64,000 nucleotides of DNA from Candidatus Woesearchaeota archaeon (GTDB lineage Archaea > Nanobdellota > Nanobdellia > Woesearchaeales > GW2011-AR4): positions 2,206-66,205 of the forward strand of contig JACPBQ010000002.1 of NCBI GenBank assembly GCA_016180235.1, given 5' to 3'. Position numbers and translations under genes: made by a program. The notes under the pieces are model-generated. The model searched no databases. It was not told the DNA's origin and saw only the letters and a list, made by a program, of their open reading frames with translations. Positions 3,065 to 52,513 of the stretch are shown in pieces (the first letter of the stretch is position 1; each line of letters opens with the position of its first letter).

Positions 3065-4273
3065 ATGCACCCTTTCACTTTCAAATACCAGCCAAAGACC
3101 TCAAAGGAGATAATAGGCCAGGAATCGGCAATAAAAAAACTAAGGGATTTTGTAATTAATTTCAAGAAGCAGAAAAAGAATGCAGCATTATTATACGGCC
3201 CTTCCGGAACCGGAAAAACAATAAGTGCCTATGCAATTGCTAAGGAACTGAACCTGGAAATTCTTGAAGTCAATGCCAGCGACGTTCGTAATGCCGACCA
3301 GATAAACTCTTTATTGGGCTCAGCAATAGGCCAGATGAGCCTGTTCTCAAAAGGAAAGCTGATTTTAGTGGATGAGATTGACGGCCTGTCAGGCACAAAA
3401 GACAGAGGCGGCTTGCAGGCAATTGCAAAATTAATAGAAAAATCATCATTCCCGATAGTGTTGACAGCAACAAACCCATGGGACTACAAGTTCAATAATT
3501 TAAGGAGAAGGGCTGAGATGATAGAATTTGCCCCATTGGACTACAAGGACATTTCCATTATCCTGAAAAGTATCTGCATCAATGAAAAGATAAAATTTGA
3601 AGAGGAAGTCCTTAAGGGCCTGGCCAGGAGGGCTGGAAATGATGCACGGGCAGCTATAAACGACCTGCAGACACTGGCAATGGAAGCAAAAGAACTGACA
3701 AAAGAAAGCCTTGAGGAATTGGGGGAAAGGAACAAATTGGAAAGCATGCCAAATGCCCTCGCCAAGATATTCAAGAGCACAGACCCGAAAGTTGCAATAG
3801 TTGCATTTGACGCTGTCGAGGAAAACCTTGATCAGCAATTGCTGTGGATTGATGAAAACCTGCCTAAGGAATACACAAATCCTGAAGATTTGGCAAAAGC
3901 ATATGACAAGTTAAGCAAGGCTGATATGTTTAGCAGAAGGATAAGAAGATGGCAGCACTGGCGTTTTCTTGTATACATAAACGCATTAATCACAGCAGGA
4001 ATTGCCGTTTCCAAAAAGGAAAAATATAAACACTATGTGCAGTATAAGCCAACAGGAAAGCTGCTAAAATTATGGTGGGCAAAGCAAAAATCAATGAAGA
4101 AAAAGGCCATTGCCGAAAAAATCGCTGAAAAAACGCACACATCAAAGAAAGAAGCCTTGAAAAGCACATTGCCATACCTGCAGGCTGCATTTAAAAAAAA
4201 CAGGGATTTCAGGGAGCAATTAACATTAGAATTGGATTTGAGCAGGGAAGAGGCTGAATGGCTGAGAAAATAA
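3065..4273 (+). CDS. rfcL: replication factor C large subunit (AAA+ clamp loader)
   Basis: Walker A LLYGPSGTGKT, then EVNASDVRN, LILVDEIDGL..DRGG and PIVLTATNPWD, the pattern of archaeal RFC-L. No SRC motif of the small subunit. Confidence 0.8.
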   Translation: MHPFTFKYQPKTSKEIIGQESAIKKLRDFVINFKKQKKNAALLYGPSGTGKTISAYAIAKELNLEILEVNASDVRNADQINSLLGSAIGQMSLFSKGKLILVDEIDGLSGTKDRGGLQAIAKLIEKSSFPIVLTATNPWDYKFNNLRRRAEMIEFAPLDYKDISIILKSICINEKIKFEEEVLKGLARRAGNDARAAINDLQTLAMEAKELTKESLEELGERNKLESMPNALAKIFKSTDPKVAIVAFDAVEENLDQQLLWIDENLPKEYTNPEDLAKAYDKLSKADMFSRRIRRWQHWRFLVYINALITAGIAVSKKEKYKHYVQYKPTGKLLKLWWAKQKSMKKKAIAEKIAEKTHTSKKEALKSTLPYLQAAFKKNRDFREQLTLELDLSREEAEWLRK

Positions 4274-6448: not shown

Positions 6449-6661
6449 GGGATTTGATAAGCGCATGTTTTATCAGACTAAAAACCGTAGCTCAGACTGA
6501 GAAGACTGAGGTCTTCGGCTAAGGAGAGCATTTCAAAAATCTCAAACTACGCTGAAGACGTAGGTGATTGGTACAGGTATACTGGCCAACTTAAATCCTG
6601 GGTTCAAATATCCCAGAGGGCCATTAAAATCCCTCAGGATTTGAAATTCCCAGCGGTCCCA
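6449..6661 (+). tRNA. tRNA-Phe(GAA), interrupted by about five insertions (or a decayed pseudogene)
   Basis: Acceptor GGGA(6449-6452)+CCG(6485-6487) pairs with CGGTCCC(6654-6660), discriminator A. D-stem GCTC/GAGC. Perfect anticodon arm CTACG-CTGAAGA-CGTAG (6547-6563). T-arm CTGGG-TTCAAAT..CCCAG. Exon pieces sum to 74 nt and insertions to 139 nt. A T-run follows. Confidence 0.6.
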
Positions 6662-30140: not shown

Positions 30141-31034
30141 TTATCTATTTTTTGACACAGAAAACAGCACTTCCTCTTCTATTCTTTCGGGGTAGAACTT
30201 CTTCTTGAAGTCCAGCAATGACTTGTCTGACTGGCCGAAATTCACATGCCCATATCCTTTTTTCCTGAGAAGGCTGAATTCCTCCATTACAGCTGCTTCT
30301 CCAATGCCATCAAACTTGTAGTTAAGCAGCCCCAATGCGGAATAATAATCATTGCTTCCGGGTATTTTCCAACCTCCGCTTATCGTGCATGGAATGCCAT
30401 CTACCAAGAGGGATCTTGCATTCTCTATGCCCTCAAAATTACTTTCCAGGATGTTGTCGTAAAACTGCTCCTGCCACAGGCTGTCAGCCGAGTTCCTGTT
30501 TTTTTTCCAGGAGTGCAGAATTTTCCTTAATTCCACCTGATCTGTATCTCCACATGGAACAAATTCAACCTTGTGGCTGGAATAAAGATTATTCCTGAGG
30601 TTCCTGAGTTTTTTCCATTTTTTCCCGGGAATTGCTGCATCCCAATCCTTCAGGTTATAAACTGGAAAGTAAAATGTCCTGCAATGTTCTGGAATTTTGT
30701 ATTTTCTAATATTTTTTATTTTATCCCGGTGCTCCTTGGGAACTGCAACAAATATTTTCCTTGTATTGCTGTCGGCAAAAAGATAATCCAAAAATTTTTC
30801 CAGAACCTCAGGCTTTTTTTCCTCAGGAGCCAGTATTCCTGGCAGCATCTCCCATGTGCCGGCACGATTAAAGCACATTACGCCCATGCCACCATGCTCA
30901 AAAAAGGCGCTTTTAGTCCCTTTTCCATCAAGATGCCTCAGGTTCCAGTAATTATGCTCAACGCCGTGGCCGTATTTTCCTATAGAATCCTCGATAAGCT
31001 TCTTTTTTCCTGCAATGTCAAAAATCAGCTGCAT
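30141..31034 (-). CDS. DUF2156 / MprF C-terminal-like protein (aminoacyl-tRNA-dependent transferase fold, GNAT-like)
   Basis: GKKWKKLRNLRNNLYSS and SLLDFKKKFYPE resemble the conserved K-x-LR-x-x-x-N and L-x-x-FK-x-KF-x-P segments of the phosphatidylglycerol lysyltransferase C-terminal domain family. Recognition is by eye only. Confidence 0.45.
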   Translation of the reverse strand: MQLIFDIAGKKKLIEDSIGKYGHGVEHNYWNLRHLDGKGTKSAFFEHGGMGVMCFNRAGTWEMLPGILAPEEKKPEVLEKFLDYLFADSNTRKIFVAVPKEHRDKIKNIRKYKIPEHCRTFYFPVYNLKDWDAAIPGKKWKKLRNLRNNLYSSHKVEFVPCGDTDQVELRKILHSWKKNRNSADSLWQEQFYDNILESNFEGIENARSLLVDGIPCTISGGWKIPGSNDYYSALGLLNYKFDGIGEAAVMEEFSLLRKKGYGHVNFGQSDKSLLDFKKKFYPERIEEEVLFSVSKNR

Positions 31035-48257: not shown

Positions 48258-48797
48258 ATGAAAATCTCAGTATGCGGCGCAAGCGATGGCGCGAATAACG
48301 ATGAAATAAGGAAAAAAGCCTTTGAAATCGGCAAAGCCCTCGCAGAGAGCAATGTTTTAGTCCTGACAGGCGCAACTTACGGCTATCCTCATGCAGCCGC
48401 AAAAGGCGCTTTTTCCAATAACGGAAAGGTCATGGGAATAAGCCCTGCCAAGGATGAAAAAGAGCATATTAACAAATATAAATTCCCGACTGATAGCCAT
48501 ACTCAAATAGAATTTACAGGCCTGGGCATACCGGGAAGAAATTACCCGCTAGTCAAAGAAGGGGGTGCTGTAATCATAATTTCAGGCCAAATCGGCACTT
48601 TAAATGAGTTTACCATGGCCTTCCATGCAAATAAGCCAATAGGCATACTAAAAGACTCTGGCGGCATAACGGATATTATAGAAAAAATAGCCGAAATCTG
48701 CAACAAGAGCGATGAAAAGGAAAACATTGTTTATTCTGATGATCCAAAAGAGCTGGTGCAGCTGGTTATAGATAAATTAAAAAACAGCGCAAAATAA
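48258..48797 (+). CDS. TIGR00725 / LOG-like (SLOG) Rossmann-fold protein
   Basis: KISVCGAS.., VLTGATYGYPHAAAKGA, GGAVIIISGQIGTLNEF. TATA-like aagtttaaataatg 27 nt upstream of the ATG at 48258. Confidence 0.6.
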   Translation: MKISVCGASDGANNDEIRKKAFEIGKALAESNVLVLTGATYGYPHAAAKGAFSNNGKVMGISPAKDEKEHINKYKFPTDSHTQIEFTGLGIPGRNYPLVKEGGAVIIISGQIGTLNEFTMAFHANKPIGILKDSGGITDIIEKIAEICNKSDEKENIVYSDDPKELVQLVIDKLKNSAK

Positions 48798-48809: not shown

Positions 48810-48953
48810 GGGCCCGTGGTCTAATCCGGCATGACGTTTCCTTCGCAGGGAAAAGACTCCGGGATGCTCGAAATTAGTTTTTCGGCACGGAAATTCAAAT
48901 ATCCCAGAGGGAGACTGCAAATCCATTGGGTTTTGAGAGTCCCGGCGGGTCCA
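48810..48953 (+). tRNA. tRNA-Ala(CGC) with two insertions flanking the T-loop
   Basis: GGGCCCG/CGGGTCC acceptor with G3:U70 (alanine identity pair). D-arm GTC-TAATCCGGCAT-GAC. Anticodon arm TTTCC-TTCGCAG-GGAAA. T-stem CCGGG(48859-63)/CCCGG(48941-45). TTCAAAT at 48894-48900. Insertions of 30 and 40 nt, and 74+70=144 nt. Confidence 0.75.
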
Positions 48954-48967
48954 TTTCAATTTCAAAA

Positions 48968-50164
48968 ATGCCAGCCTGCAAATCAGTTTATGAGCCAAGG
49001 GAAGACAGCACTATGCTGGAAAAGCATGTCAGAAAGCATGCTAACGGCCAGGTTTTGGACATGGGCACCGGCTCTGGGATACAGGCAATAACAGCCACTT
49101 ACAACAATAACGTAAAATCAGTAATAGCATTGGATATACAAGAAGAGGTTATTGAGCATTGCAAAAAAAACATTGTTAACGATAAAATAAGTTTTTTGAT
49201 TTCCGACTTGTTTGAAATATTTAAAAAAAACAAATCATTGAAAAATAAAAGGTTTGACACAATAATTTTCAACCCCCCTTACCTACCGGAAGACATCAAG
49301 CTGAAAGACCTGACATTGGACGGGGGAAAAAAAGGCTATGAGGTCATTGAAAGATTCATAAACAATGCAGGCAATTATCTAAAAAAAGACGGGATAATCC
49401 TTATTGTTTTCTCTTCCCTGACAAAAAAGGATAAAGTTGAGGAATTCATAAGAAACAACTTGTTTGAATTTGAATTATTGGAAAAAAAGGTTTATTTCTT
49501 CGAGCAATTGTACGTTTACAAGCTAAAAAAATCAGACATATCAAAAAAATTAGACAGCAATGGCATAAAAAATATAAGGTATTTCTCAAAAGGAAAACGA
49601 GGATTCATATTCACAGGCACTTTAAAAAACAAAAAAATTGCAGTTAAGATAAAAAACCCAAAAAGCGATGCAGTTTTAAGGATAGAAAACGAGATAAAAT
49701 TCCTGAAATTGCTGAATAAAAAGAAAATCGGGCCTAAATTATTGTTTTCTGGCAATGATTTTCTTGCTTATGAATTTGCTGATGGCGTTGCATTTATAGA
49801 TTTCTTGGAAAACAAAAAAAATGATAAAAAAATAGCATTAAGGATAATAAAAAGCATTTTTGGGCAATTATTTGAGATGGATAAGCTAAAAATCAACAAA
49901 GAGGAGATGTCGCATCCGCAAAAGCATATTATCATAAGCAATAAAAACAGGCCCGTATTACTGGACTTCGAGAGAGCCCATCATGTTAAGAATCCCGGCA
50001 ATGTCACCCAGTTTTGCGATTTTTTGATATCGAAAAAAATAGCGAATATGCTGAAAAAGGGCAATATTGGGATAAATAGGGTGAAAATGATAAAAGCTGC
50101 TAAAAAATACAAGAAAAATCAGAATAAAGTAAACTTTATGAATATTATTAAGGAGCTAAGATGA
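48968..50164 (+). CDS. fusion protein: Mtq2/HemK-like glutamine-N5 methyltransferase plus Bud32/RIO-like atypical kinase domain
   Basis: N-half: VYEPREDSTML, VLDMGTGSGI, IIFNPPYLP (NPPY). C-half: GKRGFIFTG..KIAVKIK (P-loop plus Lys), AYEFADGV, HPQKHIII..PVLLDFERA (catalytic or DFG-like). ATG at 48968, 15 nt after the tRNA-Ala 3' end. Confidence 0.7.
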   Translation: MPACKSVYEPREDSTMLEKHVRKHANGQVLDMGTGSGIQAITATYNNNVKSVIALDIQEEVIEHCKKNIVNDKISFLISDLFEIFKKNKSLKNKRFDTIIFNPPYLPEDIKLKDLTLDGGKKGYEVIERFINNAGNYLKKDGIILIVFSSLTKKDKVEEFIRNNLFEFELLEKKVYFFEQLYVYKLKKSDISKKLDSNGIKNIRYFSKGKRGFIFTGTLKNKKIAVKIKNPKSDAVLRIENEIKFLKLLNKKKIGPKLLFSGNDFLAYEFADGVAFIDFLENKKNDKKIALRIIKSIFGQLFEMDKLKINKEEMSHPQKHIIISNKNRPVLLDFERAHHVKNPGNVTQFCDFLISKKIANMLKKGNIGINRVKMIKAAKKYKKNQNKVNFMNIIKELR

Positions 50165-52293: not shown

Positions 52294-52513
52294 GCCGACG
52301 TCGCATAACCTGGCATTGCGGTGGCCTTGAGAGCCACTTCCCGTAAGGGTATCTCGGTCAGCTTTTTTGCTTGCGCAAAAAACCTGGGAAAAACAGGGAA
52401 TTCCTCGTTTTTGCCCGGAATTCAAATTGCAGAGTAAGCAAATAGCTGGAGAAATTCAAATATCCCAGAGGGCAGCTAAAATCCCTCGGGATTTGGGAGT
52501 CCGGGCGTCGGCG
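52294..52513 (+). tRNA. tRNA-Ser(UGA), class II, with two insertions around the T-loop
   Basis: Acceptor GCCGACG/CGTCGGC, discriminator G. D-arm GCA-TAACCTGGCAT-TGC. Anticodon arm GTGGC-CTTGAGA-GCCAC. Long variable arm (CCC-gtaa-GGG). T-stem 3' CCGGG (52501-05). TTCAAAT at 52455-61. Insertions of about 97 and 39 nt. Confidence 0.7.

Follow-up and report, generated by a model that had tools for sequence, protein, structure and literature searches.

A tRNA-Ala(CGC) gene with its T-loop between two introns, and a tRNA-abutting Mtq2-kinase gene, in a Woesearchaeota archaeon

How can a tRNA gene function when two insertions cut its T-loop off from the remainder of the molecule, and how is a protein-coding gene expressed whose start codon follows only 14 nt after such a tRNA gene? 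Both questions are raised by a locus of a groundwater Woesearchaeota archaeon (assembly of 1.04 Mb, 40% G+C and 81% complete), lying in the 64-kb stretch of DNA analysed here, which we call the window (contig C5:2206-66205 of the assembly). The locus comprises a tRNA-Ala(CGC) gene of 144 nt at 48810-48953 on the forward strand, followed on the same strand at 48968-50164 by a gene coding for a 398-residue protein in which an Mtq2/HemK-type methyltransferase (PF05175, E = 1.3e-15) is fused to a small kinase-like domain, and which we refer to as the Mtq2-kinase gene. On the basis of the sequence itself, of ARAGORN analysis of its spliced form and of orthologous loci we conclude that 48810-48953 is a real tRNA-Ala(CGC) gene with its T-loop cut off by two introns. 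We also think it probable that both introns are of the bulge-helix-bulge (BHB) type and would be spliced sequentially, and that this functional tRNA would be transcribed together with the Mtq2-kinase gene, the mRNA of which would be released by RNase Z.

The gene is built of three exons, the first of which (48810-48863, 54 nt) contains the acceptor-stem 5′ strand, the D arm, the anticodon arm, the variable loop and the T-stem 5′ strand CCGGG (48859-48863). Intron 1 (48864-48893, 30 nt) lies at position 53/54 and is followed by the T-loop TTCAAAT (48894-48900), a micro-exon of 7 nt, or of 6 nt (48894-48899) if intron 2 is cut at 59/60. Intron 2 (48901-48940, 40 nt) comes directly after the T-loop, and exon 3 (48941-48953, 13 nt) supplies the T-stem 3′ strand CCCGG (48941-48945), the acceptor 3′ strand CGGGTCC (48946-48952) and a discriminator A at 48953, with the CCA not being encoded. 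Pairing of GGGCCCG (48810-48816) with CGGGTCC produces a G3:U70 pair, the D arm is normal, the anticodon arm TTTCC-TTCGCAG-GGAAA presents the anticodon CGC, and the variable loop reads AGACT. An earlier, sequence-only reading of the window had described the G3:U70 acceptor, the intact D and anticodon arms, and insertions of 30 and 40 nt on either side of TTCAAAT such that 74+30+40 = 144 nt; the arms agree with it base for base, as do all of the coordinates.

With G3:U70, A73, an alanine anticodon and a cloverleaf that forms when both inserts are excised, the sequence has the features of a tRNA-Ala, and ARAGORN calls the doubly spliced sequence as a tRNA-Ala(cgc) of 74 nt. It calls no tRNA on either of the singly spliced forms, and neither ARAGORN nor Rfam at its gathering threshold finds a tRNA anywhere in the 64-kb window, a relaxed Rfam search giving only a 13.9-bit partial tRNA match. 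We also considered a single 77-nt insert within CCGGG...CCCGG, but this was rejected because T54-Ψ55-C56 is missing from the loops that it leaves, for instance TGAGAGT or ATGCTCG.

The order of SLOG-family gene, tRNA-Ala(CGC) and Mtq2-kinase gene is also found in relatives of this archaeon, and the inserts are absent, individually or together, from otherwise colinear orthologs. The syntenic tRNA gene of genome G002 is intronless and 73 nt long, and the T-loop of the intronless ortholog L011 is identical to TTCAAAT; the G010 ortholog combines a D-arm-region insert with the 40-nt element and has nothing at 53/54, and that of G001, a member of the same genus, has an intron of ∼47 nt at 37/38 and, following the T-loop, a different insert of 28 nt, and is without intron 1. 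The T-loop is therefore a micro-exon, as the sequence-only reading had proposed. Across 25 orthologous loci the tRNA gene varies in length from 72 to 190 nt, and its stems show compensatory changes in the acceptor (C5:G68 to U5:A68), in the anticodon stem (TTTCC/GGAAA to TTGCC/GGCAA) and in the T stem (CCGGG/CCCGG to GCGGG/CCCGC). These comparisons support the view that the two insertions are distinct introns of the archaeal tRNA type.

The start of the Mtq2-kinase gene is fixed at ATG 48968 by 50 orthologs, and the N-terminus M-x-x-C-K-S-V-Y-E-P-R-E-D-S is conserved both where a tRNA gene abuts and where it does not. A mechanically called open reading frame (ORF) of 412 aa at 48926-50164, which begins with a TTG inside the tRNA gene, was rejected because the orthologs point to the ATG. 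The spacer between the tRNA gene and the ATG (TTTCAATTTCAAAA; 48954-48967, 14 nt, forward strand) contains no run of four or more Ts, no Shine-Dalgarno sequence and no TATA box, such that the tRNA gene and the ORF lie on the same strand with neither promoter nor terminator between them; a scan for sigma-70 promoters and terminators likewise found nothing, the sigma-70 model being one that is not relevant to archaea.

Promoter positions in this genome are strikingly uniform. For the 649 ORFs of at least 200 aa in the whole genome, TATA-like hexamers are sharply concentrated at −32 to −27 relative to the ATG, with 306 matches in that interval as compared with about 15 per 2-nt bin elsewhere, and from this geometry the genes appear typically to be leaderless with a fixed distance from promoter to start, the mRNAs being almost exclusively of this kind. 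At the Mtq2-kinase gene the same interval reads GAGAGTCCCGG (also given as AGTCCCGG), which is GC-rich tRNA and intron sequence; there is no TATA-like hexamer at −32 to −27, and the best 8-mer has A/T at five of eight positions. The sequence-only reading had stated that there is no room for a TATA box of the gene's own before ATG 48968, and this stands, in that the stereotyped promoter interval is taken up by the tRNA gene and its intron.

The likely promoter of the tRNA is a predicted TATA-like box (TTAAAAAA) at 48777-48784 on the forward strand, which lies within the 3′-terminal part of the SLOG-family gene upstream. An all-A/T 8-mer is present upstream of the tRNA in all 25 of the orthologous tRNA-Ala(CGC) loci, starting between −29 and −33 relative to G1 at 24 loci and at −42 at the remaining one. 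Because this distance equals that from TATA box to ATG across the genome, the tRNA itself may be transcribed with almost no 5′ leader; near-leaderless transcription of tRNAs has been reported for Nanoarchaeum equitans.

The Mtq2-kinase fusion gene is present in 60 of the 70 genomes of the family. Of the 55 loci that we read, the start codon could be resolved in 50, and 49 could be scored. The tRNA ends within 14 nt of the ATG in 18 of the 49 (with a spacer of 1 nt in 13 loci, 2 nt in two, and 5, 13 and 14 nt in one each), the spacer is 22-40 nt in five, some of which contain new A/T-rich boxes or hairpin-repeat inserts, and in the remaining 26 the tRNA is far away or absent. An all-A/T 8-mer occupies the TATA interval in one of the 18 abutting loci, as against 16 of the 26 in which the tRNA is far away or absent, where the box is typically TTTATAAA or TTTAAATA and starts at −30. 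The abutting loci span several genera, and the non-abutting loci have regained a TATA box, a pattern that speaks for selection on the adjacency and against accident. Two loci (L116 and L118, in genomes G091 and G089 respectively) have a GC-rich hairpin repeat (gtgagcgag...ctcgctcac) between the 3′ end of the tRNA-Ala and the ATG, giving spacers of 34-40 nt. At a further locus (L040, G008:C18) the SLOG and Mtq2-kinase genes adjoin with the usual GATTAAAAAAC box and no tRNA between them, which suggests loss or relocation of the tRNA, the promoter context having been kept.

Co-transcription of the tRNA with the downstream mRNA, as the sequence-only reading had proposed, gains comparative support from the conserved adjacency, from the modal spacer of 1 nt and from the difference in TATA boxes, and we infer that the Mtq2-kinase mRNA is most likely released from the tRNA transcript by trimming of the tRNA 3′ end. 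A single transcript would begin at the tRNA TATA box ∼33 nt before G1, or from further upstream in the row of same-strand genes, and transcription would run on into the Mtq2-kinase gene. A cut by RNase Z after A73 would then make both the 3′ end of the tRNA and the 5′ end of the mRNA, whose leader would be 14 nt in this archaeon and 1 nt in most of its relatives.

Two observations detract from this account. The difference in TATA boxes is in part trivial, since a GC-rich tRNA occupies the interval in the abutting loci, although it shows despite this that the Mtq2-kinase gene is without a promoter at the genome's usual place; and several other spacers between tRNA genes and ORFs in this genome contain runs of five to nine Ts (T5-T9), which are possible terminators. 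The latter would also fit with the tRNA being real and spliced while the Mtq2-kinase gene has a weak promoter of its own within the tRNA gene, such that the adjacency reflects compaction, with no co-transcription and no role for RNase Z. The candidate for such a promoter is the T-rich tail of intron 2 (TTTTGAGA) at −37 to −30, and promoters that overlap upstream genes are normal here, as the tRNA TATA box inside the SLOG gene illustrates; moreover, the spacers of 12-16 nt behind several intronless tRNAs would set the A/T-rich T-loop near −30. However, the stereotyped interval contains no TATA-like hexamer, and in relatives with spacers of 1-2 nt what lies at −30 is the T stem, the variable loop or an unrelated intron, and no sequence is conserved there. 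In the other copies of intron 2 the tail reads GGATTTGGGAGT, and pairing with the T-loop, described below, accounts for its being conserved. We therefore regard a separate weak promoter as unlikely, and prefer release of the mRNA from a shared transcript.

The other tRNA-ORF pairs in this genome come from a scan anchored on acceptor and T-arm sequences, which is partial and noisy (99 candidates, of which ∼26 are credible) and is used for context only. Eight of the ∼26 credible tRNA genes have a same-strand ORF of at least 70 aa with its ATG 7-21 nt past the discriminator, the seven in addition to tRNA-Ala(CGC) being at C1:95819, C1:38427(-), C4:46343, C5:66696(-), C6:57871(-), C9:49238 and C9:221324 (all in G000). 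Only 11-12 tRNA genes of this genome are visible to Rfam and ARAGORN, and most of the credible candidates are 85-220 nt long, so that interruption is the rule among the tRNA genes here.

Are the two introns of a kind that archaea are able to remove? The splicing endonuclease EndA recognizes a 4-bp helix in which each strand is followed by a 3-nt bulge, and it cuts after the second base of the bulge. At intron 1 the exon sequence TCCG (48858-48861), which combines the last base of the variable loop with the three that open the T-stem 5′ strand, pairs perfectly with intron CGGA (48888-48891) to form the central helix, and the bulges are GG|A (48862-48864) and AA|U (48892-48894). The inner helix is formed by 48865-48873 with 48879-48887 (UGC.../...GCA, extended by UCGAAA/UUUCGG). 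Intron 1 therefore has a strict BHB core, with the outer exon-exon helix being absent.

Homologs of intron 1 (ATGCT...GCACGGAAA) are present at 53/54 in the tRNA-Ala(GGC) genes of G013 and G012, and that of G033 has a 53/54 intron with a different inner helix (AGTTGCAA/TTGCAACT). A covariance model of the junction finds this class in 17 of the 301 genomes of the order. Among 22 aligned copies 94.6% of cells are paired, as compared with 47% or less in slid controls, a large margin even though the alignment was fitted to the covariance model, which favours structure. Double changes are seen in 11 of the 12 pairs (79 cells), and on four of five measures the observed values were reached by none of 500 shuffles, the exception being the count of pairs with double changes, which was reached by seven of the 500. 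The central helix between exon and intron also covaries, with exons containing TCAGGG having CTGA in the intron, and those with CCCAGG having TGGG.

Intron 2 is organized differently. It contains a hairpin in which 48903-48910 pairs with 48923-48930, and its tail TGAG (48934-48937) pairs with TTCA of the T-loop (48894-48897), so that the 3′ splice site is made up of the T stem, a 3-nt bulge AG|U (AG|T in the gene, 48938-48940) and a helix of at least 4 bp. Searching the window for exact or near-exact repeats of this 40-nt element gave no match beyond the element itself, and the further copies were found by anchoring on TTCAAAT+ATCCCAGAG. The earlier description of this element as conserved proves to be correct, there being five copies in the host genome, the four others of which are 39 nt long and likewise follow a T-loop; the nhmmer E-values of the five are 1e-12 to 1e-15, with the next match at E = 0.3. 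Judged from their flanks, the four other genes are tRNA-Gly(UCC), tRNA-Lys(UUU), tRNA-Phe(GAA) and tRNA-Ser(UGA), and in three of the five genes bearing intron 2 the T-stem 5′ strand stands directly before the T-loop. Two of the four are in the window on the forward strand, that in tRNA-Phe(GAA) spanning 6603-6653 (with its T-loop and T-stem 3′ strand), and that in tRNA-Ser(UGA) spanning 52455-52505.

The presence of a homologous intron at the same position in five isotypes (Ala, Ser, Gly, Lys and Phe) and in several genomes is that of a spreading family, and a covariance model recovers it from 31 of the 301 genomes and 23 of the 216 genera of the order. An alignment of 45 copies has 92.5% of cells paired and double changes in nine of 15 pairs, values that none of 500 shuffles reach. 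Its constant parts are the T-loop, a dinucleotide AT, the covarying hairpin stem, a tail GATTTGARAGT, and the T-stem 3′ strand, and ATTTGAA in the tail is the exact complement of the T-loop TTCAAAT. Pairing of the tail with the invariant T-loop would explain how one intron can function in any tRNA, and it offers a simple, testable account of how introns spread among unrelated archaeal tRNA genes.

The enzymes expected to process such a transcript are encoded in the host genome. EndA is a protein of 192 aa from a single alpha-type gene with both domains (PF01974 and PF02778), its closest solved structures being the N. equitans alpha subunit and the Methanocaldococcus jannaschii alpha4 enzyme, and a tblastn search of the genome with the alpha subunit found no paralog that could be a second subunit. 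The ligase RtcB is also present (PF01139, 576 bits), as is an RNase Z-like gene for a 302-aa metallo-beta-lactamase protein with an HxHxDH motif (PF12706, 76.5 bits), whose score for the specific tRNase Z family is borderline (PF13691, 27.6 bits against a cut-off of 27). The EndA and RNase Z-like genes adjoin (L013, G000:C9:∼285-287 kb), lying on opposite strands with divergent starts ∼230 nt apart.

Several considerations weigh against the removal of both introns as BHB introns. The 5′ site of intron 2 presents a 2-nt bulge if the helix between T-loop and tail runs to 6-7 bp, and a 3x1 internal loop if it stays at 4 bp, and its motif is therefore a relaxed rather than a strict BHB. Alpha4 forms of EndA were long thought to require strict motifs, and in one pairwise alignment with the M. 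jannaschii enzyme no insertion, the L3 loop included, could be seen in the host EndA. The BHBs do not appear in minimum-free-energy folds of the precursor, the z-scores of which are about −1.7 to −1.9; we treat such folding as uninformative. The BHB search around 48859-48945 proposed in the sequence-only reading finds a strict core at intron 1 and a relaxed motif at intron 2, where, by the BHB cleavage rule, the junction is probably at 59/60 rather than 60/61, giving a micro-exon of 6 nt. The mature sequence is identical with either junction, and the columns at 59/60 and 60/61 are invariant A/T in the intron 2 alignment, for which reason covariation cannot separate them.

The imperfect 5′ site, which does not lie in a clean 3-nt bulge, could also mean that intron 2 is not removed via EndA and a BHB at all, but by some other mechanism, or at other junctions that would give a T-loop TTCAAGT. 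Reasoning from the alignment, junctions after loop positions 3-5 also yield this legal T-loop, and the hairpin loop GGGAGACYRCAAATCC is conserved beyond the needs of splicing. On the other side, the 3′ site is a textbook arrangement of helix, 3-nt bulge and helix of at least 4 bp, the more diverged members of the family retain only the T-loop, the AT dinucleotide, the covarying hairpin and the GATTTGAAAGT tail, and we know of no other pathway by which archaeal tRNA introns are removed. We consider this very unlikely, and favour removal of intron 2 by EndA through a relaxed motif.

That the gene is instead a decaying pseudogene, its T arm ruined by two unrelated mobile hairpin insertions and its RNA never maturing, is hardly credible: standard finders do reject it, and hairpin inserts do occur at L116 and L118, but excision restores a perfect cloverleaf, both inserts lie exactly at sites where they form splice motifs with covariation, many other tRNA genes that are single-copy and belong to several isotypes contain the same inserts, the promoter is conserved as is the synteny, and no other tRNA-Ala gene is detectable in the assembly, that at 48810-48953 being the sole gene found with the GGG.../...UCC-A G3:U70 acceptor.

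If both introns are removed by EndA, a likely order of removal is suggested by what the two motifs share. The central helix of intron 1 takes up three bases of the T-stem 5′ strand, and the intron 2 motif uses the T stem as its outer helix, so that the two are mutually exclusive. Together with the prospect of a free 6-nt exon held only by the tail of a departing intron, this argues for sequential splicing, in which EndA would cut and RtcB would ligate one intron at a time, most simply with intron 1 first. The spliced junctions would be CTCCGGG|TTCAAAT and TTCAAA(T)|(T)CCCGG, with the junction words CTCCGGGTTCAAATCCCGGCGGGTCCA. We note separately that in the minimum-free-energy fold CUCGAAA of intron 1 (48868-48874) can pair with UUUUGAG of the intron-2 tail (48931-48937), taking the place of the real T-loop, which it may mimic and with which it may compete in the precursor.

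The position of the introns has a possible consequence for the downstream gene. RNase Z recognizes the acceptor/T-arm unit, and as both introns disrupt the T arm, the mRNA could be released only after two ordered rounds of EndA and RtcB action. Translation of the Mtq2-kinase mRNA would then be gated by tRNA splicing, and in Woesearchaeales chromosomal tRNA punctuation might regularly serve in place of promoters; we offer this as a tentative extension that we would not expect to hold. If such gating were true, expression of a modifier of a translation-termination factor would depend on the capacity for tRNA processing. In any event, the presence of two introns in the arm that RNase Z reads raises the question of the order of splicing and end-processing.

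How much of this is new? Multiple-intron tRNA genes were reportedly described by Sugahara in 2007/2008. Thermoproteales, ARMAN and Asgard archaea are known to possess tRNA genes with several introns as well as intron families that spread (PMC4033280, PMC4090602, PMC3239211, bioRxiv 10.64898/2026.10.13.758758), and the present gene resembles these in having BHB-type introns at non-canonical positions, the T arm among them, of which there may be up to three or more in a gene, in being invisible to standard finders, and in its predicted reliance on EndA and RtcB machinery. It differs in that its host is a woesearchaeote (DPANN) with a single alpha-type EndA, and in that both introns are in the T arm, isolating a T-loop exon of 6-7 nt, with mutually exclusive motifs that imply ordered splicing. 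The transposed tRNA intron families of the Thermoproteales (Fujishima et al. 2010, as summarised in PMC4033280) share with the intron 2 family the occurrence of near-identical introns at the same position in different isotypes and genomes. What sets the intron 2 family apart is that its tail complements the universal T-loop and that it spans at least 23 genera of a single DPANN order.

The alpha4-type EndA of DPANN archaea has been associated with increased disruption of tRNA genes, and the incompleteness of predicted DPANN tRNA sets was taken to imply undetected disrupted genes (Kaneta et al. 2018; PMC5829648). The tRNA-Ala(CGC) gene is a concrete, resolved example with comparative proof, and the locus shows why these sets look incomplete, standard tools having found none of at least three tRNA genes in 64 kb.

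A tRNA gene that marks the beginning of an mRNA also has parallels. Archaeal co-transcripts are known in which a tRNA is joined to a C/D small RNA (sRNA) and released by RNase Z, and in Thermococcus kodakarensis a tRNA-Lys lies within the 159-nt 5′ untranslated region of TK0306 (PMC4247193). These are similar in that a tRNA is followed by a downstream RNA and in that RNase Z is the proposed releaser, and they differ from the present case in that a spacer of 1-14 nt would allow the cut itself to create a translatable end, and in that comparison with relatives documents here that the gene has lost its own TATA box.

In mitochondria, where tRNA punctuation was reportedly described by Ojala, Montoya and Attardi in 1981, tRNAs are excised from a longer transcript and cutting by RNase Z (ELAC2) leaves the mRNA with a 5′ end that has no leader or almost none. 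The 3′ cut of tRNA-Ala(CGC), as read here from genes, would likewise make a near-leaderless mRNA 5′ end. Unlike the mitochondrial system, which involves a whole polycistronic genome, this is one chromosomal archaeal pair of tRNA-Ala(CGC) and Mtq2-kinase genes, and the tRNA must be spliced twice in the very arm that RNase Z recognizes. Within the Mtq2-kinase family there is either a TATA box at −30 or a tRNA ending 1 nt before the ATG. This comparison is evidence that 3′ processing of a tRNA can take over from a promoter in making leaderless archaeal mRNAs, a mechanism otherwise established mainly for mitochondria. Multi-intron tRNAs and spreading intron families are thus already known, and it is the combination at this locus that is new. 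Its distinctive elements are the T-loop exon of 6-7 nt between mutually exclusive splice motifs, the intron family that pairs with the universal T-loop, and the natural experiment that the family as a whole provides, with a tRNA gene standing in for the TATA box of a leaderless gene.

Further inserts are seen in the two other tRNA genes of the window that carry copies of intron 2. The tRNA-Phe(GAA) gene (∼6495-6661, forward strand) apparently has at least two more, one in the D-arm region and one in the variable region, and its 5′ end was not found by the acceptor/T-arm scan. The tRNA-Ser(UGA) gene (52294-52513, forward strand) has an extra insert before the T-loop, which starts with AATTCAAAT and looks like a decayed duplicate of the T-loop plus intron.

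In G001 a different tRNA (L016/L138, G001:C32:∼3937-4030, reverse strand) has introns on either side of the T-loop (TCAGGG|ATGTC...CTGAA|T TTCAAAT ATCCC...), and the double T-arm arrangement therefore recurs within the genus. The same genome contains a T-arm and acceptor 3′ part (L015/L132, G001:C31:∼30700-30780, reverse strand) that has introns of both the 53/54 type and the 59/60 family. There is no acceptor 5′ strand within 230 nt of it with which it could be read as a third tRNA with a double T-arm intron; it may be the 3′ half of a split tRNA or a remnant, and a TATA-like box lies ∼30 nt upstream.

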